A stretch of 64,000 bases of DNA. Source: Myxococcales bacterium. Its GTDB lineage: Bacteria > Myxococcota_A > UBA9042. Where the stretch lies: positions 15,121 to 79,120 of the forward strand of contig SHZD01000003.1 of NCBI GenBank assembly GCA_009692465.1. The letters are read 5' to 3'. This document shows, piece after piece, positions 1,384 through 30,719 of the stretch. The notes under the pieces were generated by a model. That model was not told the origin of the DNA. It ran no database searches and worked only from the letters and a program-made list of their open reading frames with translations. Each line of letters starts with the position of its first letter. Within the stretch, counting starts at the first letter, position 1. Made by a program: the position numbers and the translations under genes.

Positions 1384-2064
1384 CTAGATCTTGAAGCTTC
1401 CCGACGCCGGGCCAAAGACCAGCAGTGGCAGGCTGGCAATCCCGTCCAGCACATAATCGGCGCCCATCCCGTGTGCGGCCTTGCTGCCATCGTGGTCGAC
1501 AAGCGCACAGCGGATACCGGCATTGCGCGCGGTGTTGCGATCAATTCGCGAATTGCCGACCAAAAGAGTGTTGTTGCGATCGCCGCCGCACCGGAGCATC
1601 AGTTCTTCGGCGCCAGCGGGGTCAGGCTTGCGCGGCACGTCGCCGTCGCCAGCCATCAAGAACAAAAACCACTTGTCGATGCCCATCTGCTGGACCAGCC
1701 GGTGCGACGCGGCCTGCGGTTTGTTGGTCAGAATGGCCAACTTGACCCCGCCGCGAACCAACTCCTCCAAGGCCTCGGCGATACCGGCAAACAACACGGC
1801 TTTGGCCCCCAGACGCATCTCGTACCGCTCGCGAAAGCCCGGCAATTGTGCCGATATCTCGAGGTCAGTCGGCACGTCGCCAGTGGCCAACAGCGCGGAT
1901 TTCAGCAAGGTGCGCAGGTGTTCGCCGGGCCATTCAGCCACGTGCGCACTGGTCAGCGCCGGTCGACCCAGCGCCGTGAGGTGGTCGTTGAGCGCGTCCG
2001 TCAGATCCTGCAAGGTATCGACGAGCGTGCCATTCAGATCCAAAATGACCACCGAAAACCGCAC
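1384..2064 (-). CDS. HAD-superfamily hydrolase (phosphoglycolate phosphatase-like)
   Basis: DLNGTL motif I at the N-terminus, a K at motif III, and a GD/NSRID motif IV region. 226 aa. Confidence 0.7.
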   Translation of the reverse strand: MRFSVVILDLNGTLVDTLQDLTDALNDHLTALGRPALTSAHVAEWPGEHLRTLLKSALLATGDVPTDLEISAQLPGFRERYEMRLGAKAVLFAGIAEALEELVRGGVKLAILTNKPQAASHRLVQQMGIDKWFLFLMAGDGDVPRKPDPAGAEELMLRCGGDRNNTLLVGNSRIDRNTARNAGIRCALVDHDGSKAAHGMGADYVLDGIASLPLLVFGPASGSFKI

Positions 2065-2223
2065 TTCTGGCTCCCTTGCGACCGCGGCCGCGGCCGCGGC
2101 CGTCTCAAGTGTTGCTCAAGGTCGCGCAATTGCCAAGTCCGGCTGCGCGCGTTACCGTGCGCTGGCTGTCCGTGCCGTTAGTGCCACGGTCAATTGGACC
2201 CGCGCCGGAGTCAACCCGTCTAA

Positions 2224-3108: not shown

Positions 3109-3139
3109 AGATTGAACCGATCAACGGTCATCCGACAAA

Positions 3140-3262
3140 GATTGCGCAACGGAAATGGGGCGGCGAGACGCCAACCCGCCGACATTTGAACAAGTGGCGA
3201 TCGCCCTCGACCGACGAAACAAGCCGTGAGACGCCGAGCAAATTCGATTTGATCGGCTAACT
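3140..3262 (-). repeat. Family D dispersed repeat (ggagcggcgagacgcc...cgacgaaacaagc...gagacgccgagcaaat)
   Basis: Shares ~80% blocks with 24745-24870, 48781-48862 and 52685-52770. Lies between convergent genes. Confidence 0.55.
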
Positions 3263-6200
3263 ATGGGCAGACCTTTTCAAACGCGCACTTCTTGCCCACC
3301 GACCCGACTGGCGTGCACAGATCGGTGGTGCAGGCGTCGCCATCGTCGCAGGCATTCGTGCCACTGGCGCATTGCCCATTGTTGCACGAATCAGCCGCAG
3401 TACACGGATTGCCATCGGTGCAGCCACTGCCGTCGGCTTCCTTGCCCGCCGCCACACACGTACCGCCGACGCAGCCGTCGTCCACGCTACAAGGATTGCC
3501 GTCGCTGCACGGACTGCCCTCGGCTTTGGGGTTGCCTGCACACCCTTTGGCCTTGCAAATGTCGCCGGTGGTGCAACTTTGGCCGTCGTTGCACGGGCTG
3601 TTTTGCGGCAACTGGCTCGCCACGCATTGCCCGGAGCCCGGATCGCAGGCGTCAATGGTGCACGGTTGGCCATCATCGCAGACCTTGGCTAGGCCTAGGC
3701 ACTGCCCAGAAGCGCAGCCGTCTTGCAACGTACAGGGATTGCTGTCATCACACAGGGGTCCGCTGATGCCATTGACCTGACACAACCCCGACTTGAGGTC
3801 GCACACGTCCTCAGTGCAGGGGTTGTTGTCGTTGCACACTGAGCTGGATTTGCAAGAAACATCAAAGACTTGCACATCATCCACAAACGGCCCGCTGCCC
3901 ACACCCGCTGCTGGCTGGCAGGATGTCACATAGCGCAGACGCAACCGCAGCTTGAACCCTGCCCACGGGGTCAAATCGACATTGAGCACCTGCCAGCCAA
4001 TCGGCGGAGTGGGCTGCGCCAAAATGGTCCAGGCCGACAATCCATAAGGCTGCAAATCAACAAACAGTTTTTCGCCCAAGCCCGGCTGCCAAGTGCCGGC
4101 CAAGTTGATGCGCGCCTTGACCGGAGCACCAAACTTGAAAGCGGCCAGCGACAGCACTGGCGACAGCGCGCTGGTTTCGATTGAGGTAACACCTAAAGGA
4201 CATGCGGTATTTTCGCCATTGTTGCAGTTGAGTGTGCAATCGGGCGACAGCGGACCCGGCACATTGGGCGAGGCATCCATATGCCACGCTGGCGCGCCAT
4301 CGGCTTGCGGGCCGTCGCGCAGCCAATAGCTGTTGGCGGCTTGTCCACAGGTAAAAGTGGCCTCGTAGGGCAGTGCGAATTCTCCACAACCGTCGATCGT
4401 CTTGTGAAAACAGCCAACGACCGATTCGCACAAGTCAATGCTGCAAGCGTACCCATCGTCGCAGTTGCGCATAACCCCTAGGCAGGCGCCTTTTTGACAA
4501 GTGGTCTGCACAGTGCAGGCATCACCGTCGTCGCAACTACCTGTCAGCGGCTCAGGCGTGCACAGACCCGCCGCACACTTGGTCGGCTTGCACGGATCTT
4601 TGGGCTGGGCACAGAGAGCGTCCAACGTACAAGATGCGGGCTGGGCAATTTGCAGACGTAAGTCATCGACAAACCAACCAGCGGTCTCGTTGTCGAACTG
4701 GTCCACGGTCTCGTAGCGCAGTTTGACCACGATGCTCTTGCCAGCAAATTTGCTCAAGTTAACCCGAACTTTGCTCCACAGGCCGCGCCGCAAGTGATTG
4801 GGCAGCTGCACGGCTTCTTGGACAATGGTGCCGCCGACGTACAACACCTCGACGGTGCGCTTGTCTTTGATGTTGGACTTCTCGCCGTCGTGCCACGACC
4901 AAAATGTCAACTGGGCCGTCCCCTGCAAAGGCAGTGTCGTCTTGGGCAGCACAAAGCCGCCCTTAATCGGCACCCCGATGTCCACGTTGACGTTGTTGTT
5001 GAAATTAAGCGAGTAGGGCAGCGAATGCGGGGTCGGCGGATTGGGCAAGGCGTCGACTTGCCAACCGATCTTGCTGACCACAGGGTCGAGTTCCCAGTCT
5101 TTGGGGGCGGCGCCGGTATCGAAATTGCTAGCTGTGATGATTACGCAATTGTCCAGTTGAGGCCCATCGCAAACCCCGTCGCCACAGGCGGTTTTTTCGG
5201 TGCACGGATCGCCGTCATCGCAGGCGGTGCTGTTGGCCAGCGCAATGTAGCTGCAGGCGGACGGCCCATCGGCGGTGGCAAAGCAGGCATCGAGCGTACA
5301 CGCTTCAAAGTCGTCGCAAACATTGACCACCGAGGCCTTGCACAAGCTGTTGTCGCAGGCGCTGCTCGGGTTGCATGGATTGCCGTCGTCGCACGGGGTG
5401 CCATCGGCAATCATCTTGCCGCCTTGACACTTGCCCTTGAAACACGTTTGCGTTTGGGTACACGGGGCACTGGAACTGCACGGCGCGTTGTCGGCGACGA
5501 TGGTGGGTCCGCCGCATAGGCCCTTTTGGCAGCCATCGGGGCTGCTACAGGAGTTGCCGTCGTCACATTTGGCGCCGTCGACTTTGACCACGGCCGAGCA
5601 GCCGGCGACCGCGTCACAGCTGTCCAGTGTGCAGACGTTGCCGTCCTCGCACAACTTGGGTTTGGCCAAACAGTAGCCCTTCCAACACTGGTCGCCGACG
5701 GTGCATTCGTCGCCATCGGTGCAAGTGATCTGGTTGGGCGCGTAGACGCAACTGCCGCCTGCACAGGAGTCATCGGTGCACACGTCGCCGTCGTTGCAGG
5801 CGCCGGCTTGCGCACAAGCGGTGGGTTGGGCAGCGACAATTTGCAAATCGTCGACAAACCAGCCCTTTCCGGATTGAGCGATGCAGTTCAAGCCCGACCA
5901 CCGCAACCGCAATCGCACTTTTTTGTCGGCAATTTTGACCAAGCTGATCCGCACCCGTTGCCATGACTTGTCGCCAACCGCGTTGTCCTGCCATAACACG
6001 ATGGCAATGGTGGCGAAGTTGTCGCTGGACACTTCGATCAAGCGCAGGTTTTGGCTGGCCGCCGTGCCGACATCATGCCAGCTGTACAGCCACAAGGCCG
6101 GGTCCTTGAGCCCTTGCAGATCGATCACCGCACTGCTGGCACTGGCTTTGCCAGCAATTCCGCCGACGCAGGGCACCGACTTGCCGTCGTTGACGTTGAG

Positions 6201-9200
6201 CGAGCACCCACCACTGTGAAACCCGGGTGGACTCGGTGTCGCATCGACGCCGAAGGTGACCGTGCTCGATCCGGGTAGTGGAACCAATTCCCACGGCGCA
6301 CTGCAGTCAATGGCATCTTGCCACACCACCGAACAAGGCACGGTCGCGCCGACGCAATGGCCGGCGCTGCAATGGTCGCCGGCGGTGCAAGGGCTGCCGT
6401 CGTCACAGGCGGTGCCGCCGTTGACTTGCTCCCATTGGCAGGTGCCGCCTTGGACGCACTCGTCTTTGGTACACAGATTGCCATCGTCGCATTTGGGCCG
6501 GGTGGTACACTTGCCGTTGACGCAGAAGTCGCCGACCGTGCAGGCGTTGCCGTCCGGGCATGGATCGCCGTCGGGTCGCGGGGCGTTGACGCAGCCTTTA
6601 GCGGCAAGGCAAAAGTCCAGAGTGCAAATGTCGCCGTCATCACAAACGGTTAGGGTGGCGCCCGCGCAATCGCCGCCGGCAGTGCAAGCGTCTGCGGCCG
6701 TGCAGCCGTTGCCGTCCTCGCACTTGCCGAGCAGGGTCTGGTGACTGCACCAACCGCCACCGAGGCAGACTTCGGCGGTGCACGAGTTGCCGTCCTCGCA
6801 ATCGGGCGCAGTTTGACACTTCTTGGCGACACCTGCGTGTACAGCCAGATCGCTGACCAGCCAGCCCAATCCTTCCGTATCGGGACACGACGCGGAATCA
6901 AAAACCAACTGCAACTGCACGACCTTGCCCTGCCACGGCGTGAGATCGATGCGCAAGTGCCGCCAAACCCCGGGCTTTTCCCCGTCATTTGTCAGCCACA
7001 GGACTGTGGTCGTCGTCGTCTTGGTACTGGTTGTGTGGCTGATGTCGATCCAGCGCAGATTAACCTGATTGCTTTTCCCCACATCAGCGTAACTGCGGAG
7101 CTTGAGCACGGGCCGTTGCAGTCCGGTCAGGTCCAGCGTGCGCGTCGCGGTGCCCGACACCTTGGTCGTGTCAGCGCATTTGACCGAGGTGCCGTTGGTA
7201 AATCCCAGGGCGCAGCCGACGCCAACCGCCGCTGGCATCGTCACCATCCGCCACGCTGCCTCGGCGGTCGCCGGCACCGGCAAGTCCCAGCCACCGTTGT
7301 CGGTACACACCGTTGGCAGCGTTTGGGCGATGGCACACGGCGCCGCCATCCCCAGGCAACTGCTGTTGGCGGTACAAGCGTCCGCCTCCGTGCAGGCGTT
7401 GCTGTCGGTGCACGGGGTGGCAGAAATGACCTTGAGGTGCGAGCACGTCAGCCCAGCGCAGGAGTCCTGCGTGCATGGATTGCCGTCGTCACAAAAAAAG
7501 CGCGGGATGCACACGCCCAAGTGACAGACGCTGGCATCGGAGCAGGCGTCGCCGTCATCGCAGGCGACCGCCTCGTTGCTGATGGCGGCGGCGCATTTGC
7601 CTGAAGCCAAGTCGCACACGTCGTAGGTACACGGGTTCTTGTCGTCGCAGTTGACGCTGAGCGTGCCTGCGCACACTCCGCCGCTACACGAATCGCCACC
7701 AGTGCAGGCGTTGCTGTCGTCGCAGTCGCCGCTGAAATCGCTGCCGACGCACTCTCCGCCGGCGCATTTTTCGCCAATCGTGCAAGAATTGCCGTCATCA
7801 CAGGTGCCGAGCAGCGCGGCCTTGCCTTGGCAGGCCCCGTTCTTGCAGGCGTCTTGAATCGTGCAGGGGTTGCCGTCACTGCACACCGTCAGCGCATTGT
7901 TCTTGTGATTGCACAGTTTGCTGGATGGCACGCAACCGTCGTCGGTGCAAGCGTTGCCATCGTCACAATCGGTGGCTTTCTTGCAGTAGGTTCCTCCCAC
8001 TTCCACGTCGTCGACAAATGGACCTGTGAGATTGGCTGCTTTGGCGCAATCGGGGGCGACCATGTGCAACCGCAGGCGAAACAGAGCCGGCGCCGGCTGG
8101 GGCAGCTTGATTTCGACTTGCTGCCAGCCGCCGCCACTGGGTCCGCCGGCAAAACTGTGGACGGTCTGCCACAGCGTGTCGCCCTTGGCCAAGATGACCA
8201 CGGTGAGGACATCTTGAGTACGCCAAGTGCCGCCGAGCCAAAACCGCATGGATACCGCATGGTTGCTGCCTAACGCCGCCGTCGAGAACATCGGACTGGT
8301 TGCCGTCGCCTGCGCGCTATTGCCATCGGGCGCGCATTGCATCGAAGTGCCCAGGTTGAAGTTGAGCGAGCAGGCCGCAGATTTGTAACCAGCTATAAAT
8401 ACACCAAGTTTTGGTATCGCATCTAACGTCCACCGCGGCGCGCCAGGCACGGGTGGCGATAGCTCCCAGGCCGGCTTTTCGGCGCAGGCAAACGCTTGCT
8501 TGTGGGGTAGTTCAACGACGCAACCGAACAATTCGCTGTGGAAACAGCCGACCTTGGGGTCGCAGGTGTCGACCGTACAGGGATTGTCGTCATCGCAGGC
8601 TTCAATCGCATCGCTGTGTTCGCAGCCAGCGATGCCGCCACAGATGTCATTGCTGCACGGGTTGGCGTCGTCGCAGTTCGCGTTTTCATCGGTGGCGTTG
8701 TTGCAGTTGTCGTCGTAGCCATTGCAGACTTCTGGTTTAGGCTCAGCGCCTTGGCACGGAGCCAAGCCATCGGGGCCGCACACGCGCTTGCCGGTGCAAG
8801 TGCCAGCGCTATTTTGCAGGCTGCAGGCGCTGGCCAACTTGTGGGCAATCGCACGCGGCGAACAGGCGCAGACCCCATTTTGCGGAGCGCATTGTTTGCT
8901 CGAACTGCCCGCCGTGGTGGTCACGACTTCGCAGGCAAACCCAGTAGGACAATCAACTGAAGTCAGGCACTTGACGCCACAGCGACCGCCGCCGTCGCCG
9001 CCTTGAATACACGCGGCGCCGGCTGCCCCTGGCGCCTTGCAGTCGTTCTGGGTCGCACACGGATCGCACAACGTCAGCAGTGGATCGACGCACACGGTGC
9101 CGCCAGCCAGCAAGTCGCACACTTGCCCGGTGGCGCATTCCTTGCTGGAGGCGCACGGCGCCGCGCACACTTGGCTGCCGTCCCGCTTCTCGGCGCAAGC

Positions 9201-9617
9201 GATGGTACAGTCGCTGTGACTTTGGCATGGACAACCGGCGCTGCGGCAACTGGGGGCGCCGTCGGGCTTGGTCCCGCCATCGACCGCGGTGGTGACTGTG
9301 ACTTCGGTGGCCAACAGCGCATCGGCGTCGGCAGTGGCAGTGATGGTTGGTGGTGGTTGGGGTCCGGCAGAACAAGCGCTGACAAGGCCCAGACCGGCCA
9401 GCGCAACCCAAACGACCTGACTGAGGGCCCGTACAAGAATGACTCGATCGATCCGCGATTGGAGCGGAGCCTGCAGGCGGCTTGCAAAGCCGCGAGCTAG
9501 CGACCCACCAAGCAAGCAAGGCGCCGCGGGGCAAAATCGGCTTGATTTTGCACGGGCCCTAAGGCTCAAGCCGACCCCCCACATTGCGCAACGGACGCGG
9601 CGAGCGGTCGGCAGCAA
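3261..9617 (-). CDS. giant Cys-rich repeat lipoprotein (2118 aa). It has many C-x-D-G-N-x-C-T-x-D-x-C (CTDC-type) repeats alternating with about six ~170-aa beta-sandwich-like modules that end in GWFVDD.
   Basis: Uninterrupted 6.3-kb ORF. Lipobox LVSAC after a hydrophobic stretch. Tens of CDDGN(A/P/S)CT repeats. The N-terminal ~50 codons run through a MITE-B copy, so the true start is uncertain. Confidence 0.8.
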   Translation of the reverse strand: MLPTARRVRCAMWGVGLSLRARAKSSRFCPAAPCLLGGSLARGFASRLQAPLQSRIDRVILVRALSQVVWVALAGLGLVSACSAGPQPPPTITATADADALLATEVTVTTAVDGGTKPDGAPSCRSAGCPCQSHSDCTIACAEKRDGSQVCAAPCASSKECATGQVCDLLAGGTVCVDPLLTLCDPCATQNDCKAPGAAGAACIQGGDGGGRCGVKCLTSVDCPTGFACEVVTTTAGSSSKQCAPQNGVCACSPRAIAHKLASACSLQNSAGTCTGKRVCGPDGLAPCQGAEPKPEVCNGYDDNCNNATDENANCDDANPCSNDICGGIAGCEHSDAIEACDDDNPCTVDTCDPKVGCFHSELFGCVVELPHKQAFACAEKPAWELSPPVPGAPRWTLDAIPKLGVFIAGYKSAACSLNFNLGTSMQCAPDGNSAQATATSPMFSTAALGSNHAVSMRFWLGGTWRTQDVLTVVILAKGDTLWQTVHSFAGGPSGGGWQQVEIKLPQPAPALFRLRLHMVAPDCAKAANLTGPFVDDVEVGGTYCKKATDCDDGNACTDDGCVPSSKLCNHKNNALTVCSDGNPCTIQDACKNGACQGKAALLGTCDDGNSCTIGEKCAGGECVGSDFSGDCDDSNACTGGDSCSGGVCAGTLSVNCDDKNPCTYDVCDLASGKCAAAISNEAVACDDGDACSDASVCHLGVCIPRFFCDDGNPCTQDSCAGLTCSHLKVISATPCTDSNACTEADACTANSSCLGMAAPCAIAQTLPTVCTDNGGWDLPVPATAEAAWRMVTMPAAVGVGCALGFTNGTSVKCADTTKVSGTATRTLDLTGLQRPVLKLRSYADVGKSNQVNLRWIDISHTTSTKTTTTTVLWLTNDGEKPGVWRHLRIDLTPWQGKVVQLQLVFDSASCPDTEGLGWLVSDLAVHAGVAKKCQTAPDCEDGNSCTAEVCLGGGWCSHQTLLGKCEDGNGCTAADACTAGGDCAGATLTVCDDGDICTLDFCLAAKGCVNAPRPDGDPCPDGNACTVGDFCVNGKCTTRPKCDDGNLCTKDECVQGGTCQWEQVNGGTACDDGSPCTAGDHCSAGHCVGATVPCSVVWQDAIDCSAPWELVPLPGSSTVTFGVDATPSPPGFHSGGCSLNVNDGKSVPCVGGIAGKASASSAVIDLQGLKDPALWLYSWHDVGTAASQNLRLIEVSSDNFATIAIVLWQDNAVGDKSWQRVRISLVKIADKKVRLRLRWSGLNCIAQSGKGWFVDDLQIVAAQPTACAQAGACNDGDVCTDDSCAGGSCVYAPNQITCTDGDECTVGDQCWKGYCLAKPKLCEDGNVCTLDSCDAVAGCSAVVKVDGAKCDDGNSCSSPDGCQKGLCGGPTIVADNAPCSSSAPCTQTQTCFKGKCQGGKMIADGTPCDDGNPCNPSSACDNSLCKASVVNVCDDFEACTLDACFATADGPSACSYIALANSTACDDGDPCTEKTACGDGVCDGPQLDNCVIITASNFDTGAAPKDWELDPVVSKIGWQVDALPNPPTPHSLPYSLNFNNNVNVDIGVPIKGGFVLPKTTLPLQGTAQLTFWSWHDGEKSNIKDKRTVEVLYVGGTIVQEAVQLPNHLRRGLWSKVRVNLSKFAGKSIVVKLRYETVDQFDNETAGWFVDDLRLQIAQPASCTLDALCAQPKDPCKPTKCAAGLCTPEPLTGSCDDGDACTVQTTCQKGACLGVMRNCDDGYACSIDLCESVVGCFHKTIDGCGEFALPYEATFTCGQAANSYWLRDGPQADGAPAWHMDASPNVPGPLSPDCTLNCNNGENTACPLGVTSIETSALSPVLSLAAFKFGAPVKARINLAGTWQPGLGEKLFVDLQPYGLSAWTILAQPTPPIGWQVLNVDLTPWAGFKLRLRLRYVTSCQPAAGVGSGPFVDDVQVFDVSCKSSSVCNDNNPCTEDVCDLKSGLCQVNGISGPLCDDSNPCTLQDGCASGQCLGLAKVCDDGQPCTIDACDPGSGQCVASQLPQNSPCNDGQSCTTGDICKAKGCAGNPKAEGSPCSDGNPCSVDDGCVGGTCVAAGKEADGSGCTDGNPCTAADSCNNGQCASGTNACDDGDACTTDLCTPVGSVGKKCAFEKVCP
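9421..9565 (-). mobile_element. MITE Family B copy 1. TIR is TTAGGGCCCGTGCAA / TTGCACGGGCCCTAA with TA(A) flanks.
   Basis: ~145-bp element with 15-bp terminal inverted repeats and internal palindromes (CAAAATCnnnnGATTTTG; CGGCTTTGCAAGCCG). Four copies in the window. This one is at the 5' end of the giant lipoprotein gene. Confidence 0.75.
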
Positions 9618-9838
9618 TCGGACGGTACAAAGGCACGGGCACGGCCGCGATCAGGCCCAAGTTTGGCCTAGCGCGCGAGTGTACCACAGTTTGGAAAGGG
9701 GTGTGGCGATAGCTAGTTGCAACAAGCGCGCTGCGACACTAGTCGTTCTTACCGCCCACGCAGCATTCTGAAGCGCAGCCACTGCCCCACTGCCAACTGC
9801 CGCTTGCGACAACGCCGCGAAATGCGCACAATTGCTGC

Positions 9839-11104
9839 ATGCGCCAGCCCACCCTGCTCATCGTGCCTGTTCTAATTTCGACCTTGTTCGCCTGTTCGCC
9901 GACTCAGAATTTCGGCAGCGTCGAGGGCCTGACCTGTTCGCGCTCTGGCGACCAGGTGTGCTCCAAAGAGCCGGGCAATCCGCGTGCCCGCTGCGGTTTT
10001 GACAACAATTGGACCATCCTCGAGAAGTGCAACGAGTTGCCGTGTGTGGTCGTCACCTTGTCCGGCGGCCTGCACTCCACCAGTTGCGGCGGAACACCAT
10101 CGGAAATCCAGACCGACGTCGTCACAACCCGCCAACCTGACACGATCAGCACCAGCGACACCAGCGAGGATTCGAACCGCAGTTCCGACATCAAGCCTGA
10201 AGGCAAGGACGCGATTTCGGGCACTAGCGCCACCAATTGTGGCAGCTATGTGTGCTCGGCCAAGCAACTGTGTACGCTCGGCGGCGCCTGCGAGGACAAT
10301 GCCTGCGCCAGCCCTTGCGGCCATGGCGAGCGCTGTAGCCTAGGTGTGTGTTTGTCTTACTGTTCGGGCACCTGTGCCAGCACCGAATACTGCCCACCCG
10401 ATCCGTTGGGCGACCAGTGCCAAAAACTCAACTGCACGCCGCCCATGGATCTAGGTGCCGCCTTTGTCGCGGTCGACCTGCAAGCGCAAGCCACAGCCGA
10501 CTCGCAGGCTTGCGCCCACTTGGCTGGGGCGACCTTGACCTTGAACAACGCGCTGCAAGCCGTGGGCCTTGGCGGCGACGGGCTTGCTGGCGGCATCGCG
10601 CTCGGCGCCGACACGCTAACGATTGCCACGTTACCGGTCCAAGGCAGCGCGGTGCTGTTGGCCAAGAAGGCCAACTCCAAGCCGTGCGCCGCTACTGGCG
10701 TGTGCGGGGTGGTGCTGAGCAAGGCCGACAACTTGAATCCTGCCGGCGCCGCCGCGCAACCGTGCAAGCCGCGTTATGCCGTGAACAAGTCGGACCGGTT
10801 TGAGGTGCTGCCACTGCCACTGCGCTTGGGCACAATCCGAGTGCCGTTGTTCGTGCGCAACGCGGCTGTAATGGTCGCTGCCGACAGCAAGAGTGCCGAA
10901 TTGTGCGGGCACGTGGCCAAAGCCGACATCGATGTCGCGCTGTCCGGCTTGTCCAAGGCCAGCGGGACGGCGTTTCAGTTGCTGCAAAAGCTAGTGACCA
11001 GCGGCCCGGATGTCGATAGCAATGGCGATGGCACCAAAGATGTGTGGGCAGTGCGGTTTGTCGTGCAGTTGGCCCCGGCTGTACTGAATAAATGGGCGCC
11101 GTGA
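9839..11104 (+). CDS. Cys-rich lipoprotein, function unknown
   Basis: Signal peptide with lipobox LFAC. Cys-rich N-terminal half. 421 aa. Its stop overlaps the next start (ATGGGCGCCGTGA). Confidence 0.6.
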   Translation: MRQPTLLIVPVLISTLFACSPTQNFGSVEGLTCSRSGDQVCSKEPGNPRARCGFDNNWTILEKCNELPCVVVTLSGGLHSTSCGGTPSEIQTDVVTTRQPDTISTSDTSEDSNRSSDIKPEGKDAISGTSATNCGSYVCSAKQLCTLGGACEDNACASPCGHGERCSLGVCLSYCSGTCASTEYCPPDPLGDQCQKLNCTPPMDLGAAFVAVDLQAQATADSQACAHLAGATLTLNNALQAVGLGGDGLAGGIALGADTLTIATLPVQGSAVLLAKKANSKPCAATGVCGVVLSKADNLNPAGAAAQPCKPRYAVNKSDRFEVLPLPLRLGTIRVPLFVRNAAVMVAADSKSAELCGHVAKADIDVALSGLSKASGTAFQLLQKLVTSGPDVDSNGDGTKDVWAVRFVVQLAPAVLNKWAP

Positions 11105-12126
11105 CGCCAGTTCTGCCGGCCGTACCCCCGACCATTTTCGATGCCAGCGGGGCCATTGCCGATGGCGTTTACCGCGGAACGATCGCCGACGCCAACTTGA
11201 AAGCGAGCCGGTGGCCGCTGAGCTGGCGGCAAAAAGAGTGGCACTACTTGTCAGCCGTGACCGATCGCCACTTGGTCGCGGTCGCCGTAGTGCAACTGGG
11301 CTACCTCGCCAATAGTTTTGCTTATGTCGTCGAACTTACCGGCCCCAGTGACCACCAGCCTTGGCAGTTCGAAGGGTTATCGCCCTTGGGCACAGCGGTG
11401 CGCTTTGGTCAGGGCCCGGCGCGCGGGGTGACCAGTTGGCGCAGTTCGGGCGCAGCCATTGATTTGCGGACTGACGACGACGGCTACACCGCGCGGATTG
11501 ACTTGCCGGTGGGCCGGGGCACTGAGACAAAGCGACTGTGTGCACGGCTTGAGTGTAAGCGCGGCGAGGCATTGACGCTGGTGCACACGTTGCCCACCGG
11601 CCGACCGGCGTGCACCGAAAAGGTGGCCGGGCTGCCCGCGAGTTTGGACATGCTGCTGGGCGAGCACGACATCGGCGGGGCGGCGCTGGCGAGCAGCGAC
11701 TGGACGCGCTCAGTGGCCATGCGGCAAACGGTGTGGAAGTGGGCTTCGCTCAGTGGCACCTTGCCCGATGGTCGGCACCTCGGCCTCAACTTGTCGGCCC
11801 AGGTGTACGACGACAGCCACGGCCAGTCCCGCGAAAATGCGCTGTGGATCGACGGCAAGGTCCACGCGCTTGCTGGCGGGGTGCTGTTCAGCGTGCCGCA
11901 GGCCGCGGATCGCCAGCCGTGGCTGCTGTCGAGTCAGCAAGGCGACGCGGTGCTGCTGCGTTTTGAGCCGCTGGGGGCGCGCCGGCAGGACATCGACTAC
12001 TGGCTGGTGGTCAGTCGGTTTGTCCAGCCCTACGGCCGATTTTATGGGCACTTGCGCGTCGATGGGCAGACTTTAGCCATCGACGGCATGGTCGGCGTGG
12101 TCGAGGAACACTTGGCGAAGTGGTGA
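11092..12126 (+). CDS. hypothetical protein, possibly DUF2804-like, translationally coupled to the upstream lipoprotein
   Basis: 344-aa ORF with coding-type GC3 bias and a 13-bp overlap with the upstream gene. The family assignment is from memory only. Confidence 0.45.
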   Translation: MGAVTPVLPAVPPTIFDASGAIADGVYRGTIADANLKASRWPLSWRQKEWHYLSAVTDRHLVAVAVVQLGYLANSFAYVVELTGPSDHQPWQFEGLSPLGTAVRFGQGPARGVTSWRSSGAAIDLRTDDDGYTARIDLPVGRGTETKRLCARLECKRGEALTLVHTLPTGRPACTEKVAGLPASLDMLLGEHDIGGAALASSDWTRSVAMRQTVWKWASLSGTLPDGRHLGLNLSAQVYDDSHGQSRENALWIDGKVHALAGGVLFSVPQAADRQPWLLSSQQGDAVLLRFEPLGARRQDIDYWLVVSRFVQPYGRFYGHLRVDGQTLAIDGMVGVVEEHLAKW

Positions 12127-15285: not shown

Positions 15286-15354
15286 CGCCGCCTGCGACCA
15301 AACCGGACAATCCACCGTACAGCGCGATCGGCGCGGGTTGGCCAACAGCCGAAC

Positions 15355-15573
15355 ATGACTGAAACTTTGCCCATTGCGATTACGCTCAACGGCTTGCCGC
15401 ACTCGCTGGCGCGCGGCACCTCGGTCGCGCAACTGCTCGTAGAGCTGCAGACCCCTGATTTTGGGGCGGCCGTCGAACTGAACTGCACGGTAGTGCGCAA
15501 GAAAGACCACGCGGCGACCGAGCTCGTCGCCGGTGACGTCGTGGAAATTGTTCACTTCGTCGGCGGCGGTTAG
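15355..15573 (+). CDS. thiS: sulfur carrier protein ThiS
   Basis: 72-aa protein ending in GG, directly upstream of thiG. Confidence 0.75.
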   Translation: MTETLPIAITLNGLPHSLARGTSVAQLLVELQTPDFGAAVELNCTVVRKKDHAATELVAGDVVEIVHFVGGG

Positions 15574-15598
15574 CGGCTGACCGCCAAGGACCTCATCT

Positions 15599-16378
15599 AT
15601 GGCAACAACGACTGACGACGGCTGGCAATTGGCCGGCAAGACCTACTTTTCGCGCCTGTTGGTCGGCACCGGCAAGTACGCCGACATTGCCCAGACTCGC
15701 GCCGCGCTGGACCAATCGGGCGCCGAAATCGTCACGGTGGCGGTACGGCGCATCGATCGCAGCCAAGCGCAGACGGTGCTCGACGCCATCGACCGGACTC
15801 GCCACACCCTGTTGCCCAACACGGCTGGCTGCTACACCGCGCAAGATGCCATTCGCTACGCCAATTTGGCCCGCGAAGCTGGGATGGGCGATCTGATCAA
15901 GCTCGAGGTGATCGGCGATCGACTGACGCTGTTTCCGGACAATCAAGCGACGCTGGAGGCGGCCAAAGTGCTGGTGGCCGATGGGTTTGCGGTGCTGCCG
16001 TACATCGGCGACGACCCGGTGCTGTGCAAGAAACTGCAAGATCTGGGCTGTGCCGCGGTGATGCCGCTGGGAGCGCCGATTGGTTCGGGGCTGGGAATTC
16101 GCAACCCTCATAATTTGCAGATTATTTTGCAACAGGCCACGGTACCGGTCTTAGTGGACGCCGGAGTCGGCACCGCCAGTGATGCGGCTATCGCACTAGA
16201 ACTTGGCTGTACTGCGGTGTTGATGAACACGGCCATTGCCGGCGCTCAAGATCCGATTCGGATGGCACGGGCGATGCGGTTGGCGGTTCAGGCTGGGCGC
16301 GAAGCGTTTTTGGCCGGGCGCATTCCGCGCAAGCTGCATGCGGCGGCGTCGAGCCCGCTGACTGGCCTGCTCGGGTGA
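15599..16378 (+). CDS. thiG: thiazole synthase ThiG
   Basis: ThiG family. The GTGKY Lys region is conserved and the protein is ~259 aa. Its stop overlaps the thiE start. Confidence 0.85.
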
Positions 16379-17040
16379 TCGCGCCGCGCTTGATCGCGAT
16401 TGTTGCCGCCACCGAATGCCAAAGCCCGGCGTTGGGCGCGCAATTAGCCTTTGATATTGGTAAATTGGCAGCAGTCTGCGCACAACATAAGGTCCCGTGG
16501 GGCCTGTGGTTGCGCGACCACGGCTACTCAGCAGCAACGTGGCGTTCCGTCGTCAGCGCGATGAGTCACGTAGCCGCGCTGGGGGGCAGCCTCGGCATTT
16601 CTGCTCCGGTCGATGGACCGGCGGCGCTCGCGGCAGAAAGATTGCAAACACATGGGGTTGCACGGATTCATGTCCCGCAAGCGGCGTGGACTGATTGGTC
16701 ACAGGCACAGCTGGGCGGGATGGCGAAGGTGGCTGCCGCCCACAACGAGGATTTTGCAGCAAGTGCGCTCGCATATGGCGCTGATTTTGTTACATTATCT
16801 CCAATTTGGGCCACAGCGTCCAAAGTCGAGTCGGTGGGTCTGGGGTCAGAGGCGCTGGCGGCTGTGGCTCAGCGCTTTGCGCGTCAGGTCATTGCGCTGG
16901 GTGGCATCGACGCCGTGACGGCGGCCATTTCGTTCCAAGCGGGAGCGGTAGCGGTGGCGAGCATGACCGCTTGGCGCCGCGAGCCGCGCCAGCTGGCGGT
17001 GGCCGTGCACCAAACGCCTCCAATTGCGGCGCCCTGCTAA
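16375..17040 (+). CDS. thiE: thiamine-phosphate synthase ThiE
   Basis: TMP-TENI fold motifs ([19 protein letters not shown]) and operon context with thiSG. Confidence 0.75.
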
Positions 17041-17073: not shown

Positions 17074-17514
17074 TTGGGGGCATTACTGATGAGCACTGGG
17101 GCTGCTGTCGTATTCGGCCTGGTCGCTTTCATTCACGGCTACTTCTTTGTGTTGGAGTCGGTGCTGTGGGGCAAACCGCGGACCAACAAGATCTTTGGCG
17201 TGGACGCCGAAACAGCGGCGAAAAACGCGGGGTTTGCCAAGAATCAGGGCGTCTACAACCTTTTTCTGGTCGCTGGGTTGGTGTGGGCCTTGGGCCACCC
17301 AGAACCGAGCGCCGCCACTCAACTAGCGACGTTCTTTGGCGGTTGCGTGGTGGTAGCTGGGGTGTTTGGCGCGCTCACGGTCAACAAGCGAATTTTCTTT
17401 GTCCAAGCGCTGCCAGCGTTGATCGGGCTGGGTCTGCTGCATTTGGCCTCGCGTACAACCCTGGCGCGCGGCTGGCCCGGTGTTTGGCTGCCTTGGCAAC
17501 TGACCGCAAATTAG
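17074..17514 (+). CDS. small membrane protein, DUF1304-like
   Basis: Four predicted TM helices and a FVLESVLW motif. 146 aa. Confidence 0.4.
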   Translation: MGALLMSTGAAVVFGLVAFIHGYFFVLESVLWGKPRTNKIFGVDAETAAKNAGFAKNQGVYNLFLVAGLVWALGHPEPSAATQLATFFGGCVVVAGVFGALTVNKRIFFVQALPALIGLGLLHLASRTTLARGWPGVWLPWQLTAN

Positions 17515-17735: not shown

Positions 17736-17764
17736 AGCGCTCAGAATGGCTCATTCTGAGTTTG
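17736..17764. terminator. hairpin (TCAGAATGGCTCATTCTGA) immediately 3' of nuoB
   Basis: Perfect 8-bp stem adjacent to the nuoB stop. Confidence 0.4.
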
Positions 17765-17768
17765 TTGA

Positions 17769-18293
17769 TCAAACCAATTCGGCGCGCCCAGCAGTGATCT
17801 TGTCCATCAGCATCTGGATCGCATCCTGAATCTGCTCAGGCCGCGGCGGGCAGCCGGGGATGTACACATCGACAGGAATGATGTGGTCAATTCCAGGAAC
17901 GGTCGCATAATTGTCGTAAAATCCACCCGTTGAAGCGCAAGCACCAAAAGCAATCACCCACTTGGGCTCGGCCATCTGCTCGTAAATGCGCTTGAGAATC
18001 GGCGCGTTCTTGTGGGTCACGGTGCCGACCACCATCAGTAAGTCCGCTTGACGCGGGGTAAATCGCGGCACTTCGCAGCCAAAGCGGGCAATGTCGTGCT
18101 GCGGCGCATTGACCGCCATGAACTCCATTCCGCAGCAGGCGGTGACAAACGGATATTGAAACAGCGAGAACTTGCGGCCCCAGTTGACCAATTCTTCGAT
18201 TTTAGTCGTCAGCACGTTGCCGGCCATATCGCCGCCACCTAGGCTCAACTGCTCGATACCATGCAGTTCGCTTTGTTTGTACATCAAACCCAT
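17769..18293 (-). CDS. nuoB: NADH-quinone oxidoreductase subunit B (NuoB/Nqo6-like), solo gene
   Basis: VNWGRK, ACCxxE, PRQADLLMVVGT, GACAsTGG and VDVYIPGCPPRPE motifs are all present. No nuoA or nuoC is adjacent. Confidence 0.8.
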   Translation of the reverse strand: MGLMYKQSELHGIEQLSLGGGDMAGNVLTTKIEELVNWGRKFSLFQYPFVTACCGMEFMAVNAPQHDIARFGCEVPRFTPRQADLLMVVGTVTHKNAPILKRIYEQMAEPKWVIAFGACASTGGFYDNYATVPGIDHIIPVDVYIPGCPPRPEQIQDAIQMLMDKITAGRAELV

Positions 18294-18425
18294 AGGTGTC
18301 CTCGCGGTGGCGATGCGGCCAGAGCGGTCGCAGAGCGCGCATGGTGGTCAAAGTGCAGGTGGCCGTCAAGCCCAATGGAGCGCCGCGATTCCCCGCCCTG
18401 GGCGCAACTGCGCGGATGACTTCAG

Positions 18426-20393
18426 CTACGGTACAACTACACATTTGACATTGGTGGTGCCGTCGCCGGGATAGGCTGCACCGTCGTACAGCGCCACGGC
18501 GCCGCCGGGTTCGCTAGCATCGCGCGCCGCAGGGCACTTGAAACTAATCGTCGCGCTGCCGTCGACCACTTGGCTGGCTAGGGCGTCCTGGTGGACACAG
18601 GCCGTACCGGTGCCCAATTTGGAGCTAAACTCGCACACGCGCAGCACTTGTGCTGCTGGCTTGCCGGTGACGGTGCAACTCAGCGTGGTGGTCTGCCCAG
18701 GTGTGCAGGCCACTTTTTTGGTCAGGTTGCGCCAGCCGCAGTTGCGCAGGGGCCCGATTTGGCCGCGGCTGCAAGGTAGCGTGACGTAGCCGTTGCCGGG
18801 CGTCGGCACCGTCGCAGGATAGGCGTCGCCGTTGTTGGCCTGCCAATTGGCCGAGAAGTTGCACTTGGCGCGGTACACCGTTTGACCGTTGGCGGTGGTG
18901 AACTGAGTAGGTTCAAACACCGGATTGCCCGAGGCGTCCAGAATCGGGGTGCCTTCGCACAAGAAGCCGTCAGGATTGCTAATAAATCCGAGATCTTTGG
19001 TCACCGCCCCCTGAGTGGTGTCGATGTCGGTCACGTCGATCCACTGGCACGGCAACCCGGCCTTGTACTGGTCGACCCAGCCGACTTCGACCCCTTGGGT
19101 TTCGCAGCCACCGTACGGATTATGCAAGGGTGATTTTTCATGGTTGGAGGGCCGCGCCGTCGACTGGAGGCAAAATCCGCGCTTGGCTGTCATCTCCGCG
19201 TCGCCGCCAAAGGTAAAATTGCCATAGTGGGCGAAGTGATAGTGTTGATGGCATTGATCAAACTGAAAGATGTGGTACTTGTCGTTCAGGGTCTGGGTGC
19301 CGGTCAAGTAGTAGTCGACATCGCCGATATGCAGCGCCTTGTCGCCGACGTTGCGATCGGAAGTGGCAAACTGCAGCAACCGCCGCCAACCGCTGCCGCC
19401 CACGCATTGTTCGCTCAATTCACAGGCGCCTGCGGCGATATAGCGGTAGGTCACGCGGTTGACCAAGAACTCTTCCAGTTCCAACGACAGGTCAGCACCG
19501 CCCGGCGCCGCCGTGCCGACTCGGGCCTGATTGGCGAGGTTGCGGTCCCACTTGAGGCGGGTAAACCGCACCACGGTCTCGTAGGCGCCGACATGGGCAG
19601 CTAGGGCTTGCTTACACGACTGGGTTGGCAGGTTGGTCTGGTGGCAACCGCGCGGACTCAACTCCTTTTCGGTGGTGCACTCGTGATCGTAAAAGGACTC
19701 GACCTCTTCGGATTCGACGCTATTGGGCGGAAAATCCTCTTCATCCATGCAGGCATAACCGGTACGCTGAAACAGCAACTCGGGGTCGATCGGCAGGGTA
19801 AACGGCTCGTCCCAACTGCCGCCGACCTTGGCCAACTTGGCCTCTGAGGTGGCGGGCGAGGCGGGATCGGTCACCAACGTCGAATTCAGGCGGTAATTGA
19901 CCACCACGTAGTCGTGCCCGCCCACGGTCGCCCGCTTAGGCGCGCTGGTCAGCGTCACGTTGCGCCGCGATTCGGGCGGCAGCGGCAATTGCATTTTTTT
20001 GGTGCCCAAACCGTAGAAATCCTGCCGAAAAACCAGCCGATACGAAGTCAACTGCAGTTGGGCCTTGGCGCGGTCGGTCCAAAACGCCGTCGGCTTAGCT
20101 ATCAGATCCGCGGCGATCCGGCCGCGCATGGCAATCGGGATTTCGTCTAACTTGACACCGACTTGGCCTTGCAACGTAGCGCCGACCAACGCCCCAGGGT
20201 CACCCAGACCCAACTGCGCTTGACCCGCAGAGGGCTCAGTCGTTGCATCGGCGCAAGCCACTGTTGTGGCTGCCAACGCGGCTACCAGCGCGATTTGAGG
20301 TAGTTGGCGAAAACCTATCAACAACGAGTGCTTCACGATAATCCTCCGGCGAACACAACTAAATTGAGCCAAGCGATCCGAAATTTGCAGCAT
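18426..20393 (-). CDS. lysyl oxidase-like (LOX catalytic domain) lipoprotein
   Basis: QCHQHYHFAHYGNF matches the LOX copper-binding W.WH.CHQHYH motif. KRGFCLQST matches the LTQ lysine region (KASFCLEDT). Y-x5-CQWIDVTD matches the LOX C-terminal LTQ Tyr / CQWIDITD block. Signal peptide has lipobox TTVAC. Confidence 0.7.
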   Translation of the reverse strand: MLQISDRLAQFSCVRRRIIVKHSLLIGFRQLPQIALVAALAATTVACADATTEPSAGQAQLGLGDPGALVGATLQGQVGVKLDEIPIAMRGRIAADLIAKPTAFWTDRAKAQLQLTSYRLVFRQDFYGLGTKKMQLPLPPESRRNVTLTSAPKRATVGGHDYVVVNYRLNSTLVTDPASPATSEAKLAKVGGSWDEPFTLPIDPELLFQRTGYACMDEEDFPPNSVESEEVESFYDHECTTEKELSPRGCHQTNLPTQSCKQALAAHVGAYETVVRFTRLKWDRNLANQARVGTAAPGGADLSLELEEFLVNRVTYRYIAAGACELSEQCVGGSGWRRLLQFATSDRNVGDKALHIGDVDYYLTGTQTLNDKYHIFQFDQCHQHYHFAHYGNFTFGGDAEMTAKRGFCLQSTARPSNHEKSPLHNPYGGCETQGVEVGWVDQYKAGLPCQWIDVTDIDTTQGAVTKDLGFISNPDGFLCEGTPILDASGNPVFEPTQFTTANGQTVYRAKCNFSANWQANNGDAYPATVPTPGNGYVTLPCSRGQIGPLRNCGWRNLTKKVACTPGQTTTLSCTVTGKPAAQVLRVCEFSSKLGTGTACVHQDALASQVVDGSATISFKCPAARDASEPGGAVALYDGAAYPGDGTTNVKCVVVP

Positions 20394-20623
20394 GACTAGC
20401 GGCGGGTGTCGTAAGTGCGCGGTCTATCTGCGAAAAGTGCGGAGCTTTGAGCGGCAGGCAGTGCTGCGAGTAAACACCTATTGAGCAAGCAATGGGCTGG
20501 CGCACCAAGATCGGCGAGATCGGGCACCAACGCTGAGTATGCCTGTGGCAGCGTGATGGTCAACTGGCGAGTTTTGCGCGCACGATTTGGTCGGGTTATG
20601 GCGACTTGCCACGGACCCGACCG

Positions 20624-28445: not shown

Positions 28446-28480
28446 TTCGTGCCCGTCGCCTGCCCGCTTGAGGACCGCAC

Positions 28481-30719
28481 TATGTCCCATCCCGCCGATT
28501 GGCCCGCCGCCGGTGCCATCGACCTCGGCATTCACGACTTGCCACATGCGTCATCGTCCACCGAATGGTGGTACGTCAACGGCCATTTCACCACGGCAAC
28601 CGAGCGCAAACTCAGCATTTTCGCGGCGTTTTTTCGAGTTATCAAGGGGCGAGACCCGGTCACCGGTGAATTGCTGTACGCCCACTCGGTGACGTGGGCG
28701 TTGAGCGACCCGGCTGGTGGCCACTATTGGCACGAATCGCGGGTCGATAAGGACGCGCCGGCCATGGGCATCGCCCGCATCGATCGCGGTGAAGGCGTTC
28801 GCGACGCGCGCTTGCGCCGGGCGATGAAAGAAGTGCTGGTCAAGGGTAAAGTGCCGTATCCAGACCAGATTTTTGGCGGCGATGTCTACGTGGACAAGCG
28901 CCAATTGGATCTGGACTTCGATGGCCTGCGCTTTTGGAAGGACGACGCAGGAGCCTACCACCTGCATTTGCGCAACAACCACGTCGCGGTCGGCGCGGAC
29001 TTGGTGTTGGTGCCGCGCAAACCGGCGGTGCGCCACGGCCAAGACGGTGTAGTGAAAGGTGTTTCAGGCGAGGACATGTTCTACTACTTTTTGCCGCGCT
29101 GCGATCTGGCAGGCGAGGTGCTGCTGCCCGGCGGAGTCGAAGCGCTCAGCCAAGGCAGCGGTTGGTACGACCACGAGTTCGGCCTGCACGAAGGCAAGAC
29201 CACCAGTATGGGCGACCGCAAAAACGGTCAAGAAATTGGTTGGAATTGGCTGGGCATTCAGCTTGACGACGGCCGCGAACTGTCCGCGTATCGGATGGTC
29301 GACGAACACACGGGTGAATCGGTGGGACAGTTGGCAGTGCTGGTCGATAGCGACGGCAATCGCCAAGCGTGGCCAGACTTTACCCTGATCGGCGACCAAG
29401 TGTGGACCAGCACCCGTACCTTTGCCGACTATCCGACGCGCTGGCGCGTGCATGTGCCGCAGGCGGGCATCGACATTGTCGCCACCGCCACGTTGAACGA
29501 TCAGGAATTCATCACCGTCATCAGTAAGCCTGCGTTTTGGGAAGGTCGGTGCGCCGCCCAAGGGACGATCGACGGCGCCGCCGTGACGGGTTTGGCCTAC
29601 TTGGAGCACAGCGGGCAGTTGACGATTGCCGATCTCGACGGCTTTTTTTCGGCGGTTGGCCGCCAAGTACTCAAAAGCGTGGACAAACTGGCCCCTCACG
29701 AGCCTAGTTGGGAGCAGGTGCGCGACCTAGTGGCCAGTCCGCAGCGGCCGCAGTACATGCAGGGCGTGGATGTCGACCAGTTTACCCGCACCATGATCAA
29801 GCCGGTGCGCGAAATCGTCGATCGCGGCGGCAAGTCGTGGCGGTCGTACGCGGCGTTGGCGTGTTGCGATATTGTCGGCGGCGATTCGCGGTTGTATGTG
29901 CAGTGGTTGGCGATGCCGGAGCTGATGCACGTCGGCTCGCTGATCGTCGACGATGTGCAGGACAAATCGACTATTCGGCGCGGCGGGCCGACCGCCCATC
30001 TGGTATACGGCGAGGCGCTGGCAATTAATGCGGGCACTGCGTGTTACTTCATGGGCCAAAAGCTGTTGACTGGGCGGCACATGTCAGCCGCGAACAAATT
30101 GCGCTTGTATGACCTGTACTTTGAGAGTTTGCGTGCGGGCCATGCCGGTCAGGCGCTCGACTTGGACGGTCTGGACGCCCAAATGCCGGCGGTGGTGCAG
30201 AGCGGCGGCGGTGACTGGCTGGAGGAGCGCGTGTTGGCCGTGCATCGACTTAAAACCGCAGTGCCCGCAGCGAGTTTAGCGCGAATGGGCGCAGTAGTCG
30301 GCGGCGGCACCGAGGCCCAGATCGAGGGCGTCGGATTGTTTTTCGAGTCGGTCGGCTTGGCCTTTCAGATTATCGATGATGTGCTCAATCTGCGTGGTTT
30401 TAAAGGCGATCTCAAGGCCCGCGGCGAAGACATTGCCCACGGCAAAGTGACCTTGCCGGTGGCAAAAGCGATGGCCCGGCTGGAGCAAAGCGACCGCGCT
30501 TGGTTATGGCAGTGCGTGGCGCAAAAAAGTGATGACCAAAGCCAGATCGACGCCGTCATCGCCAAACTCGAAGCCTGCGGTGCGATTGACGCCTGTGCGC
30601 AGCAAGCGCGCGATTTGGTAGAAAGTGCGTGGCAGACCCTCGATCCACTGGTGGAGGATTCGCTGCCCAAGGTCATGCTGCGGGCGTTTGGTTGGTATGT
30701 GCTCGAGCGCCATTATTGA
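28481..30719 (+). CDS. fusion protein: N-terminal AttH/CrtC-like (hydroxyneurosporene synthase / lipocalin-like hydratase) domain plus C-terminal polyprenyl diphosphate synthase (GGPP synthase-like)
   Basis: Start at the ATG with a GAGGA Shine-Dalgarno 7 nt upstream. The N-terminal ~400 aa carry the EWWYVNGHF block typical of the AttH/CrtC family. The C-terminal ~330 aa carry FARM LIVDDVQD and a second motif FQIIDDVLN (DDxxN rather than DDxxD). Confidence 0.6.

Follow-up and report, generated by a model that had tools for sequence, protein, structure and literature searches.

The 64,000-nucleotide stretch of DNA analyzed here (the window) comes from a Myxococcales bacterium (GenBank assembly GCA_009692465.1, contig SHZD01000003.1, positions 15,121 to 79,120) and carries on its minus strand a gene for a lysyl oxidase (LOX)-like protein followed by nuoB, a gene for a subunit of complex I. 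Our analysis indicates that these are probably two independent genes, one encoding a secreted copper amine oxidase of the long bacterial LOX type and the other a canonical complex I NuoB, which are neighbors in this organism only. The LOX protein belongs to a known bacterial LOX family and is not new, the juxtaposition of the two genes carries no functional signal, and neither the LOX nor the nuoB finding alters current concepts.

Residues of the LOX protein are numbered throughout on its 636-amino acid form. A search with the Pfam profile PF01186 (Lysyl_oxidase), which an earlier note on this DNA had proposed as a check of its LOX assignment, was positive (47.1 bits against a cut-off of 20.4, E=2.8e-12). 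The three motifs to which that note had drawn attention, CHQHYH, KRGFCLQST, and Y-x5-CQWIDVTD, are all found in the translation, the last in the form YKAGLPCQWIDVTD. Across 114 aligned homologs (49–74% identity), C362, H363, H365, H367, K385, and Y424 are invariant, as are many cysteines. When a profile of the family was used to search the PDB, the sole relative recovered was human LOXL2 (5ZE3, chain 5ze3_A; E=1.1e-12), and the profile alignment matched CHRHYH, the Lys of HKASFCLE, the Tyr of DMYRHDIDCQW, and five cysteines of the human protein. From LOX biochemistry, we take the aligned LOXL2 positions to be those that coordinate copper and the Lys–Tyr pair from which lysine tyrosylquinone (LTQ) is made. 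An AlphaFold2 model built from the 114-sequence alignment reached a predicted local distance difference test score (pLDDT) of 92.4 and a predicted template-modeling score (pTM) of 0.89. Disorder is confined to residues 1–41, and the pLDDT falls below 50 at residues 1–15 and 22–41, as expected for a signal peptide and linker. Comparison of this model with the PDB by Foldseek returned the two LOXL2 chains (5ze3_A and 5ze3_B; E=5.7e-10, probability 1.00) as the sole matches at E<=0.001. The protein is a LOX-family member with a LOXL2-type fold, and its copper-site and LTQ-precursor residues are intact.

The catalytic core occupies the middle of a much longer protein, and a scan with Pfam and NCBIfam found no family outside the LOX domain. 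The N-terminal alpha/beta region holds an invariant QRTxxACMDE...FPxxSV motif that was seen in two alignments, and the conserved stretch from the end of the core (residue 442) to residue ~540 is covered by no family or fold match. In the C-terminal domain, C544, C568, C580, and C601 are invariant, and C554 and C632 are present in at least 90% of the sequences. The remaining Foldseek matches were weak beta-sandwiches resembling carbohydrate-binding modules (CBM), for example 8xmz (probability 0.98, template-modeling score 0.43), and in the model these appear to belong to the C-terminal ~95 residues, which are all-beta and rich in Cys.

The N terminus appears to be of the lipoprotein type. AATTVAC, with its Cys at residue 28, fits a PROSITE-style lipobox pattern, and the earlier reading of the protein as a lipoprotein is plausible on that pattern match. 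A strict lipobox filter is passed by 73 of the 114 homologs, most of the others showing A/G-C behind a hydrophobic stretch; the predicted lipobox cysteine is a feature of the family. The mature protein has 20 cysteines, an even number that would fit an extracytoplasmic, disulfide-bonded protein.

We propose that the LOX protein would be exported via Sec and lipidated at Cys28, with the 20 remaining cysteines pairing as disulfides outside the cytoplasm. His363, His365, and His367 would bind Cu(II), and Tyr424 would be oxidized and cross-linked to Lys385 to yield the LTQ cofactor. The enzyme would then deaminate primary amines (peptidyl lysine or small amines) oxidatively, releasing aldehydes, hydrogen peroxide, and ammonia, and substrate positioning or selection is probably the task of its conserved N-terminal domain and its Cys-rich C-terminal beta-sandwich. 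The protein might instead be something other than an amine oxidase, for example a surface protein with a structural or adhesive role in which the fold has been retained, or a protein whose copper site serves other chemistry. Such a protein would suit the small share of the catalytic core (~140 of 636 residues), the size and conservation of the N- and C-terminal domains that have no assigned function, the weak CBM-like fold matches, and the precedent of a full-length archaeal LOX that was inactive until truncated (PMC6452851). We nevertheless consider it unlikely, because the three copper histidines and both LTQ residues show no variation in 114 sequences from several phyla, which would be hard to account for if the protein were not catalytic.

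A more far-reaching proposal, which we advance as a doubtful one, is that the lipid-anchored enzyme acts as a matrix cross-linker that converts lysines of surface or secreted proteins to allysine in the Myxococcota and Chloroflexota that share the family. Covalent links in the extracellular matrix formed in this manner would be a bacterial counterpart of collagen and elastin cross-linking, and the N- and C-terminal domains would dock the substrate. To our knowledge, there is no bacterial collagen or elastin substrate for LOX. The suggestion in the earlier note that the enzyme cross-links proteins of the envelope is likewise speculative.

Homologs of the window protein are numerous. At least 679 full-length homologs were recovered by homology search; the best 120 are 49–76% identical to the query over 91–100% of its length, all 120 carry a precomputed PF01186 assignment, and several homologs (from Polyangiaceae, Labilithrix, and Minicystis) bear the NCBI label "lysyl oxidase family protein." With one genome per species counted, a relative of this LOX subfamily is encoded by 214 of ~185,000 species genomes, which are mostly from Myxococcota and Chloroflexota, with some from Actinomycetota, Rokubacteria, Thermoanaerobaculia, and Bdellovibrionales. 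Nannocystis radixulma (L026) is an example of a cultured species with a LOX ortholog. The view that the domain is rare in bacteria, as put forward in the earlier note, therefore holds by frequency, but the family is large, has already been described (PMC4448552, PMC6452851), and is named by NCBI.

LOX genes in bacteria (five phyla) and archaea were reported in 2015 by Grau-Bove et al., in whose survey most prokaryotic LOX proteins were simple single-domain proteins (PMC4448552). A study from 2019 described LOX as frequent in Actinomycetes and in some Deltaproteobacteria, now Myxococcota, and noted the Cys-rich C-terminal domain of a Sorangium LOX (PMC6452851). The same work describes the Haloterrigena enzyme HTU-LOX as a copper-dependent amine oxidase that is sensitive to beta-aminopropionitrile (BAPN) and accepts a relaxed, broad range of amines; it is the only characterized prokaryotic LOX, and its native role was called "cryptic" (PMC6452851). 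No later functional work on a myxobacterial LOX was found in the literature searched. From the published description and from our matches in Polyangiaceae and Byssovorax, we infer that the window protein is orthologous to the Sorangium cellulosum LOX WP_012233967.1. Two homologs (L006 and L018; 46–49% identity) come from contigs assigned by binning to Methanosarcinales and Nitrososphaera, which may reflect either transfer into archaea, as has been proposed (PMC4448552), or misbinning. In the window itself, no compositional sign of recent horizontal transfer of the LOX gene was seen, its GC content of 0.61 being like that of the rest of the window.

We compared the neighborhoods of 80 LOX loci by clustering the flanking open reading frames (ORFs). 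A conserved LOX operon partner was considered and rejected, as nothing is kept across phyla and nothing is specific to Myxococcota. Two glycosyltransferases, an amidase, ThiE/ThiG, and ClpB are encoded in the window; near LOX in the other loci among these 80, they have no counterparts. The only recurrent immediate neighbor is a downstream gene for a ~229-residue protein, present in 15 loci that are mostly from Chloroflexota (L024, L029, L032–L036, L038–L040, L042, L043, L045, L047, and L073). This protein, whose function is unassigned, is encoded ~95 bp downstream of LOX on the same strand and may be a lineage-specific partner.

The LOX–nuoB arrangement proved not to be conserved. That nuoB lies directly downstream of LOX on the same strand is as the earlier note described it, the gap being 132 bp rather than the 130 bp given there. 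No terminator was found on the minus strand of this spacer, the RNA of the spacer is no more stably folded than that of shuffled sequences (z=+0.90), and in a search for a conserved promoter or leader 5′ of nuoB, nothing except the ribosome-binding site (RBS) was shared among solo relatives, that is, nuoB genes without other nuo genes beside them. The pair was found on two metagenome contigs alone, both identical to the window in gene order and proteins and thus from the same organism; ENA ERZ1305449 contains this same sequence. A NuoB gene occurs within 10 kb in only one of the 80 LOX loci, 7.6 kb away and on the opposite strand, and none of the 80 has one adjacent. Likewise, none of eight loci of close NuoB relatives is LOX-adjacent, all having other neighbors, and a Myxococcales metagenome-assembled genome (MAG), GCA_013360285.1, holds its LOX (L057) and its solo NuoB (L088) on different contigs.

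Because the two genes share a strand, are separated by 132 bp without a terminator-like structure, and recur in this arrangement on two independent metagenome contigs, they might be taken for a functional pair, such as an operon tying periplasmic amine oxidation to the respiratory chain. We rejected a functional link and give this idea next to no credence, because the adjacency is conserved neither in the 80 LOX loci nor in the eight NuoB-relative loci and the two contigs, sequence-identical to the window, represent the same organism. In addition, nuoB has its own RBS. NuoB is a cytoplasm-facing subunit of the peripheral arm of complex I and the LOX protein bears an export signal, so that the two would reside in different compartments, which also counts against a pair.

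The nuoB gene encodes a complete protein, as the earlier note had held, in which all N2-cluster ligands are present: C53 and C54 in TACCGME, C119 in GACASTGG, and C148 in PGCPP. The Pfam profile PF01058 matched with 102 bits (cut-off 27, E=2.5e-29), and the NCBIfam models NF005012 (211.7 against a cut-off of 116) and TIGR01957 (199.8 against 142.7) were passed. The best NuoB equivalog model, NF011392, gave 252.5, just under its cut-off of 271, and hydrogenase small-subunit models scored far below their cut-offs. The best PDB matches, all full-length, were obtained with the complex I subunits of E. coli (NuoB, 7AWT_B, 178 bits), M. smegmatis (NuoB, 8E9G_B, 176 bits), and T. thermophilus (Nqo6, 2FUG_6, 171 bits), and lower scores with subunit B of membrane-bound sulfane reductase (MBS; 6u8y_J, 112 bits), MbhJ of membrane-bound hydrogenase (MBH; 6cfw_J, 99 bits), and HycG of formate hydrogenlyase (FHL; 7z0s_G, 79 bits). 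The window protein is 68–76% identical to NuoBs encoded in Myxococcota nuoA-B-C-D-G-H-I clusters.

These scores bear on the earlier suggestion that the orphan gene belongs to a different energy-converting module, whether hydrogenase-like, Mbx/MBS-like, or Fpo-like. NuoB homologs do serve in such modules, as the matches to 6u8y, 6cfw, and 7z0s illustrate, and in none of the eight loci does the gene stand beside other nuo genes. The difference between 171–178 bits for complex I subunits and 79–112 bits for the others argues against this origin, as do the two complex I models that were passed, the failure of the hydrogenase models, the tandem-Cys motif, and the high identity to operonic Myxococcota NuoBs. 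No large-subunit, Mrp-antiporter-like, or other partner gene was present in any context examined, and we hold a different module to be very unlikely. As a canonical NuoB, the protein would carry the N2 iron–sulfur cluster and would join complex I subunits encoded elsewhere in the genome.

No other nuo genes accompany nuoB in the window, in agreement with the earlier note. Among 40 ORFs scanned across the 64 kb, none besides nuoB holds a nuo domain, and tblastn with NuoA, NuoC, NuoD, and NuoG probes from operonic loci found no match in the window; nuoA/C/D/G-like sequence is thus absent over at least 17 kb to one side of the gene and 45 kb to the other. All seven close NuoB relatives examined (68–84% identity) are also solo, with no other nuo gene within 10 kb. 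Assemblies that contain a relative from the solo clade include GCA_945889325.1, GCA_964447285.1, GCA_045863395.1, GCA_051747385.1, and GCA_013360285.1. Since the closest Myxococcota relatives are detached as well, the detached position is best read as an inherited lineage feature. As background, we used 80 more distant metagenome NuoBs (61–74% identity), 77 of which had informative loci, and 75 of these 77 are arranged as nuoA-B-C-D. The window NuoB groups with all close solo relatives in a neighbor-joining tree, and a reduced tree gave 97% support for an inner solo clade. A single residue, N95, separates the solo clade from operonic NuoBs, and with this as the sole difference there is no sign of a new NuoB function.

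The solo relatives occur in distinct surroundings. Those at 83%, 84%, 82%, and 77% identity share a context in which a MopE-like giant protein and a pseudouridine synthase precede NuoB (PseudoU_synth_2; L081, L083, L084/L085, and P0134 contigs, positions ~2000–10500). This context is missing from the window, where LOX is found upstream in its place, and the 5′ side of nuoB has therefore been rearranged. The relatives at 68%, 73%, and 83% (core only) are preceded by a 2-oxoacid dehydrogenase cluster or by genes for Dicty_CTDC proteins, with HD, S41 peptidase, dut, pnp, and rpsO genes on the other side. In two Myxococcales MAGs (L086 and L088, positions ~4000–11300), the solo nuoB stands directly behind a 2-oxoacid dehydrogenase cluster (E1 alpha, E1 beta, and E2, with E3 as well in L088), and a CsoS1D_N-domain gene follows nuoB in both. 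In these two loci, genes for an NADH-producing complex adjoin a gene for an NADH-dehydrogenase subunit.

An identity of 87% between its NuoD and the Lujinxingia vulgaris protein marks the nearest operonic clade as Bradymonadia-like. A search for a nuo cluster that lacks nuoB, made with the NuoD of the closest operonic relative, yielded four Myxococcota-like contexts (L169–L172), in each of which lexA and nuoA-B-C-D-G-H-I are followed by non-nuo genes. All four contain nuoB, and none comes from an assembly known to have a solo nuoB. In these clusters, nuoE/F is missing from the interval between nuoD and nuoG, and nuoJ–N are missing from the surrounding 10 kb; as partial clusters, they indicate that nuo clusters are already fragmented in Myxococcota. 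According to a recent preprint, split and single-cluster forms of complex I are mixed in most clades, and split forms are common (bioRxiv 10.1101/2025.03.13.643058); it mentions neither Myxococcota nor a solo nuoB. Our literature search on nuo organization in Myxococcus and Myxococcota found nothing specific.

We lean toward the view that the solo nuoB is a relocated sole copy, favored over a paralog because of its strong conservation and lack of divergence. It is possible, with lower probability, that the solo gene is an extra paralog maintained beside a nuoA-B-C-D-G-H-I cluster, its product being an N2 subunit that is redundant, serves as an alternative, or is regulated differently. Because nuoB sits in place within all four Myxococcota-like NuoD contexts, the ancestral state would be operonic, and duplication is as easy to envisage as relocation. 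The existence of many separate NCBIfam NuoB equivalog models, with the window protein just under the best of them (252.5 against 271), also fits several lineage-specific forms. Against a paralog, no solo NuoB is known from the assemblies of the four operonic contexts, and accession-number proximity, uninformative as a test, gave no pair of NuoBs from the same MAG. At functional positions, the solo clade has not diverged, N95 being the only difference, and conservation at 68–84% identity across distinct contexts suggests the constraint expected of an essential single copy. The solo clade could represent an extra, separately regulated N2 subunit that is swapped into complex I under particular conditions.

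Several points weigh against our overall reading of two independent genes, a secreted amine oxidase and a canonical NuoB. The PF01186 match is a modest 47 bits and covers only profile positions 26–165 of 204, and the activity of the long subfamily as amine oxidases is predicted from sequence and model. The lipoprotein status of the LOX protein is plausible, with a pattern match as its basis, and the lipobox overlaps an A-x-A motif at which signal peptidase I could cut. Because the spacer has no terminator, LOX and nuoB could be co-transcribed by read-through, and read-through, if any, would be incidental to gene order. Bootstrap support for monophyly of all solo NuoBs was weak (66 of 200 replicates, 33%). 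Finally, the presence of other nuo genes in the genome, and the joining of NuoB to their products, would be an extrapolation from 64 kb.

The coordinates of the two genes, their domains, and associated signals are collected in Table 1. Both ORFs lie on the minus strand at the coordinates of the earlier note, the LOX ORF at 18426–20393; the length of 655 residues given there follows from an ATG at 20393, and a 636-residue product from the GTG at 20336 is likelier. The ATG would add 19 upstream residues. We prefer the GTG because GGAGGA lies 5 nt upstream of it and because both the N termini of homologs and an independent gene call (P0001, 636 aa, 100% identical) support this start. The promoter match listed 5′ of the LOX gene is weak, as the consensus scan gave two sites in the region against 0.8 expected by chance. 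Downstream of nuoB, the hairpin at 17739–17761 is terminator-like on the plus strand and also forms in the minus-strand RNA fold, the region being not unusual (z=-0.62), and it is a candidate bidirectional terminator. The DUF1304 gene (17089–17514, plus strand), which is convergent with nuoB and annotated in metagenome gene calls, shares this hairpin.

Table 1. Positions of the LOX and nuoB genes and of their associated elements in the 64,000-nucleotide window.
Feature	Position	Strand	Basis or remarks
LOX-like lipoprotein coding sequence	18426..20336	-	636 aa; stop TAG 18426-18428; ORF list, translation, PF01186
Predicted signal peptide with lipobox, residues 1-28, (M)KHSLLIGFRQLPQIALVAALAATTVAC	20253..20336	-	Sequence; lipidation predicted at Cys28
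Conserved N-terminal alpha/beta region, residues ~45-300	19437..20204	-	Invariant columns; pLDDT >90
Lysyl oxidase catalytic core, residues 305-442	19011..19424	-	PF01186; LOXL2 profile and Foldseek matches
Copper site CHQHYH (C362, H363, H365, H367)	19236..19253	-	Invariant, n=114; aligns with LOXL2 CHRHYH
Lys385, predicted LTQ lysine, in KRGFCLQST	19182..19184	-	Invariant, n=114; aligns with Lys of LOXL2 HKASFCLE
Tyr424, predicted LTQ tyrosine, in DQYKAGLPCQWIDVTD	19065..19067	-	Invariant, n=114; aligns with Tyr of LOXL2 DMYRHDIDCQWVDITD
C-terminal Cys-rich all-beta domain, residues ~540-636	18429..18719	-	DSSP strands of the model, 549-635; conserved Cys
LOX–nuoB spacer, 132 bp	18294..18425	-	Ends in GAGGA, the RBS of nuoB
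nuoB, 174 aa, complex I 20-kDa/PSST-type subunit	17769..18293	-	PF01058, NF005012, TIGR01957; N2 ligands
9-bp hairpin CUCAGAAUG-AGC-CAUUCUGAG	17739..17761	.	Between the nuoB stop and the convergent DUF1304 gene
Sigma-70-like promoter match TTGACC-16-CATACT	20536..20563	-	5′ of the LOX start; consensus scan, 9/12 positions

Other features of the window were recorded as well. An Rfam scan of the whole window found no family at its gathering score, the thiamine pyrophosphate riboswitch included. A thiS-thiG-thiE-like (TMP-TENI) cluster lies at ~15300–17040 on the plus strand, its ThiE-like ORF scoring far under the NCBIfam cut-offs. At 3261–9617 on the minus strand is a 2118-residue ORF in which four stretches of Dictyostelium-type Cys-rich repeats (Dicty_CTDC) are combined with an InhA-like MAM domain. 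Giant proteins of a similar kind, either Dicty_CTDC proteins or MopE copper-binding proteins, are encoded beside the solo nuoB in L081, L083, L084, and L087. Carotenoid-type genes are found at 28449–30719 (plus strand), 37144–38313 (minus strand), and 39060–39770 (minus strand), comprising a CrtC-like lipocalin/polyprenyl synthetase fusion, a lycopene cyclase, and a flavin amine-oxidase/desaturase-like ORF. The last of these has 236 residues that match the first ~190 of 443 profile positions, and it may be truncated. A malate dehydrogenase gene followed by sdhC-sdhA-sdhB occupies 57928–62842 on the plus strand, so the window holds genes of respiration and the tricarboxylic acid cycle without the nuo genes sought there.

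The window protein, as a long, lipobox-bearing, three-domain LOX, is a good candidate with which to begin biochemical and genetic work on bacterial LOX, because the family is abundant in Myxococcota and Chloroflexota, the model is very confident, and the role of prokaryotic LOX has been called "cryptic" (PMC6452851). Such work would bear on whether bacteria cross-link matrix proteins by allysine chemistry. The solo nuoB is of interest in that a core complex I gene stands alone across a lineage, and sister Bradymonadia-like Myxococcota keep nuoA-B-C-D. It offers a natural case for stoichiometric assembly of complex I without operon linkage, and it is a caution to pipelines whose scoring of complex I relies on the clustering of its genes.

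When set beside known systems, the window LOX resembles LOXL2 (PDB 5ZE3) in its PF01186 domain, CHxHYH site, LTQ Lys and Tyr positions, five cysteines, and fold, yet the two are only 17% identical over the aligned structure. The SRCR domains and propeptide of animal lysyl oxidases are absent from the window protein. In their place, it has a predicted lipoprotein signal, a ~255-residue N-terminal alpha/beta domain, and a Cys-rich C-terminal beta-sandwich, and its Pfam match ends at profile position 165 of 204. With prokaryotic homologs it shares a LOX domain accompanied by a predicted signal peptide, Deltaproteobacteria being among the carriers, and HTU-LOX sets the precedent that such homologs can be active, copper-dependent, BAPN-sensitive amine oxidases. 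Its 636-residue, three-part organization differs from the mostly single-domain prokaryotic LOX proteins of the 2015 survey.

The window NuoB likewise corresponds to NuoB/Nqo6/PSST in its full-length match, its tandem Cys and two further N2 Cys residues, and the TIGR01957 and NF005012 models that it passes. It differs from the E. coli, M. smegmatis, and Thermus subunits in a ~25-residue N-terminal extension, common to its closest solo relatives, and its gene, unlike that of a standard nuo operon, does not lie between nuoA and nuoC. In split nuo clusters, both those of the preprint and those of L169–L172, complex I genes are also not in one cluster, whereas here one subunit gene is entirely alone and has been kept so across relatives at 68–84% identity.

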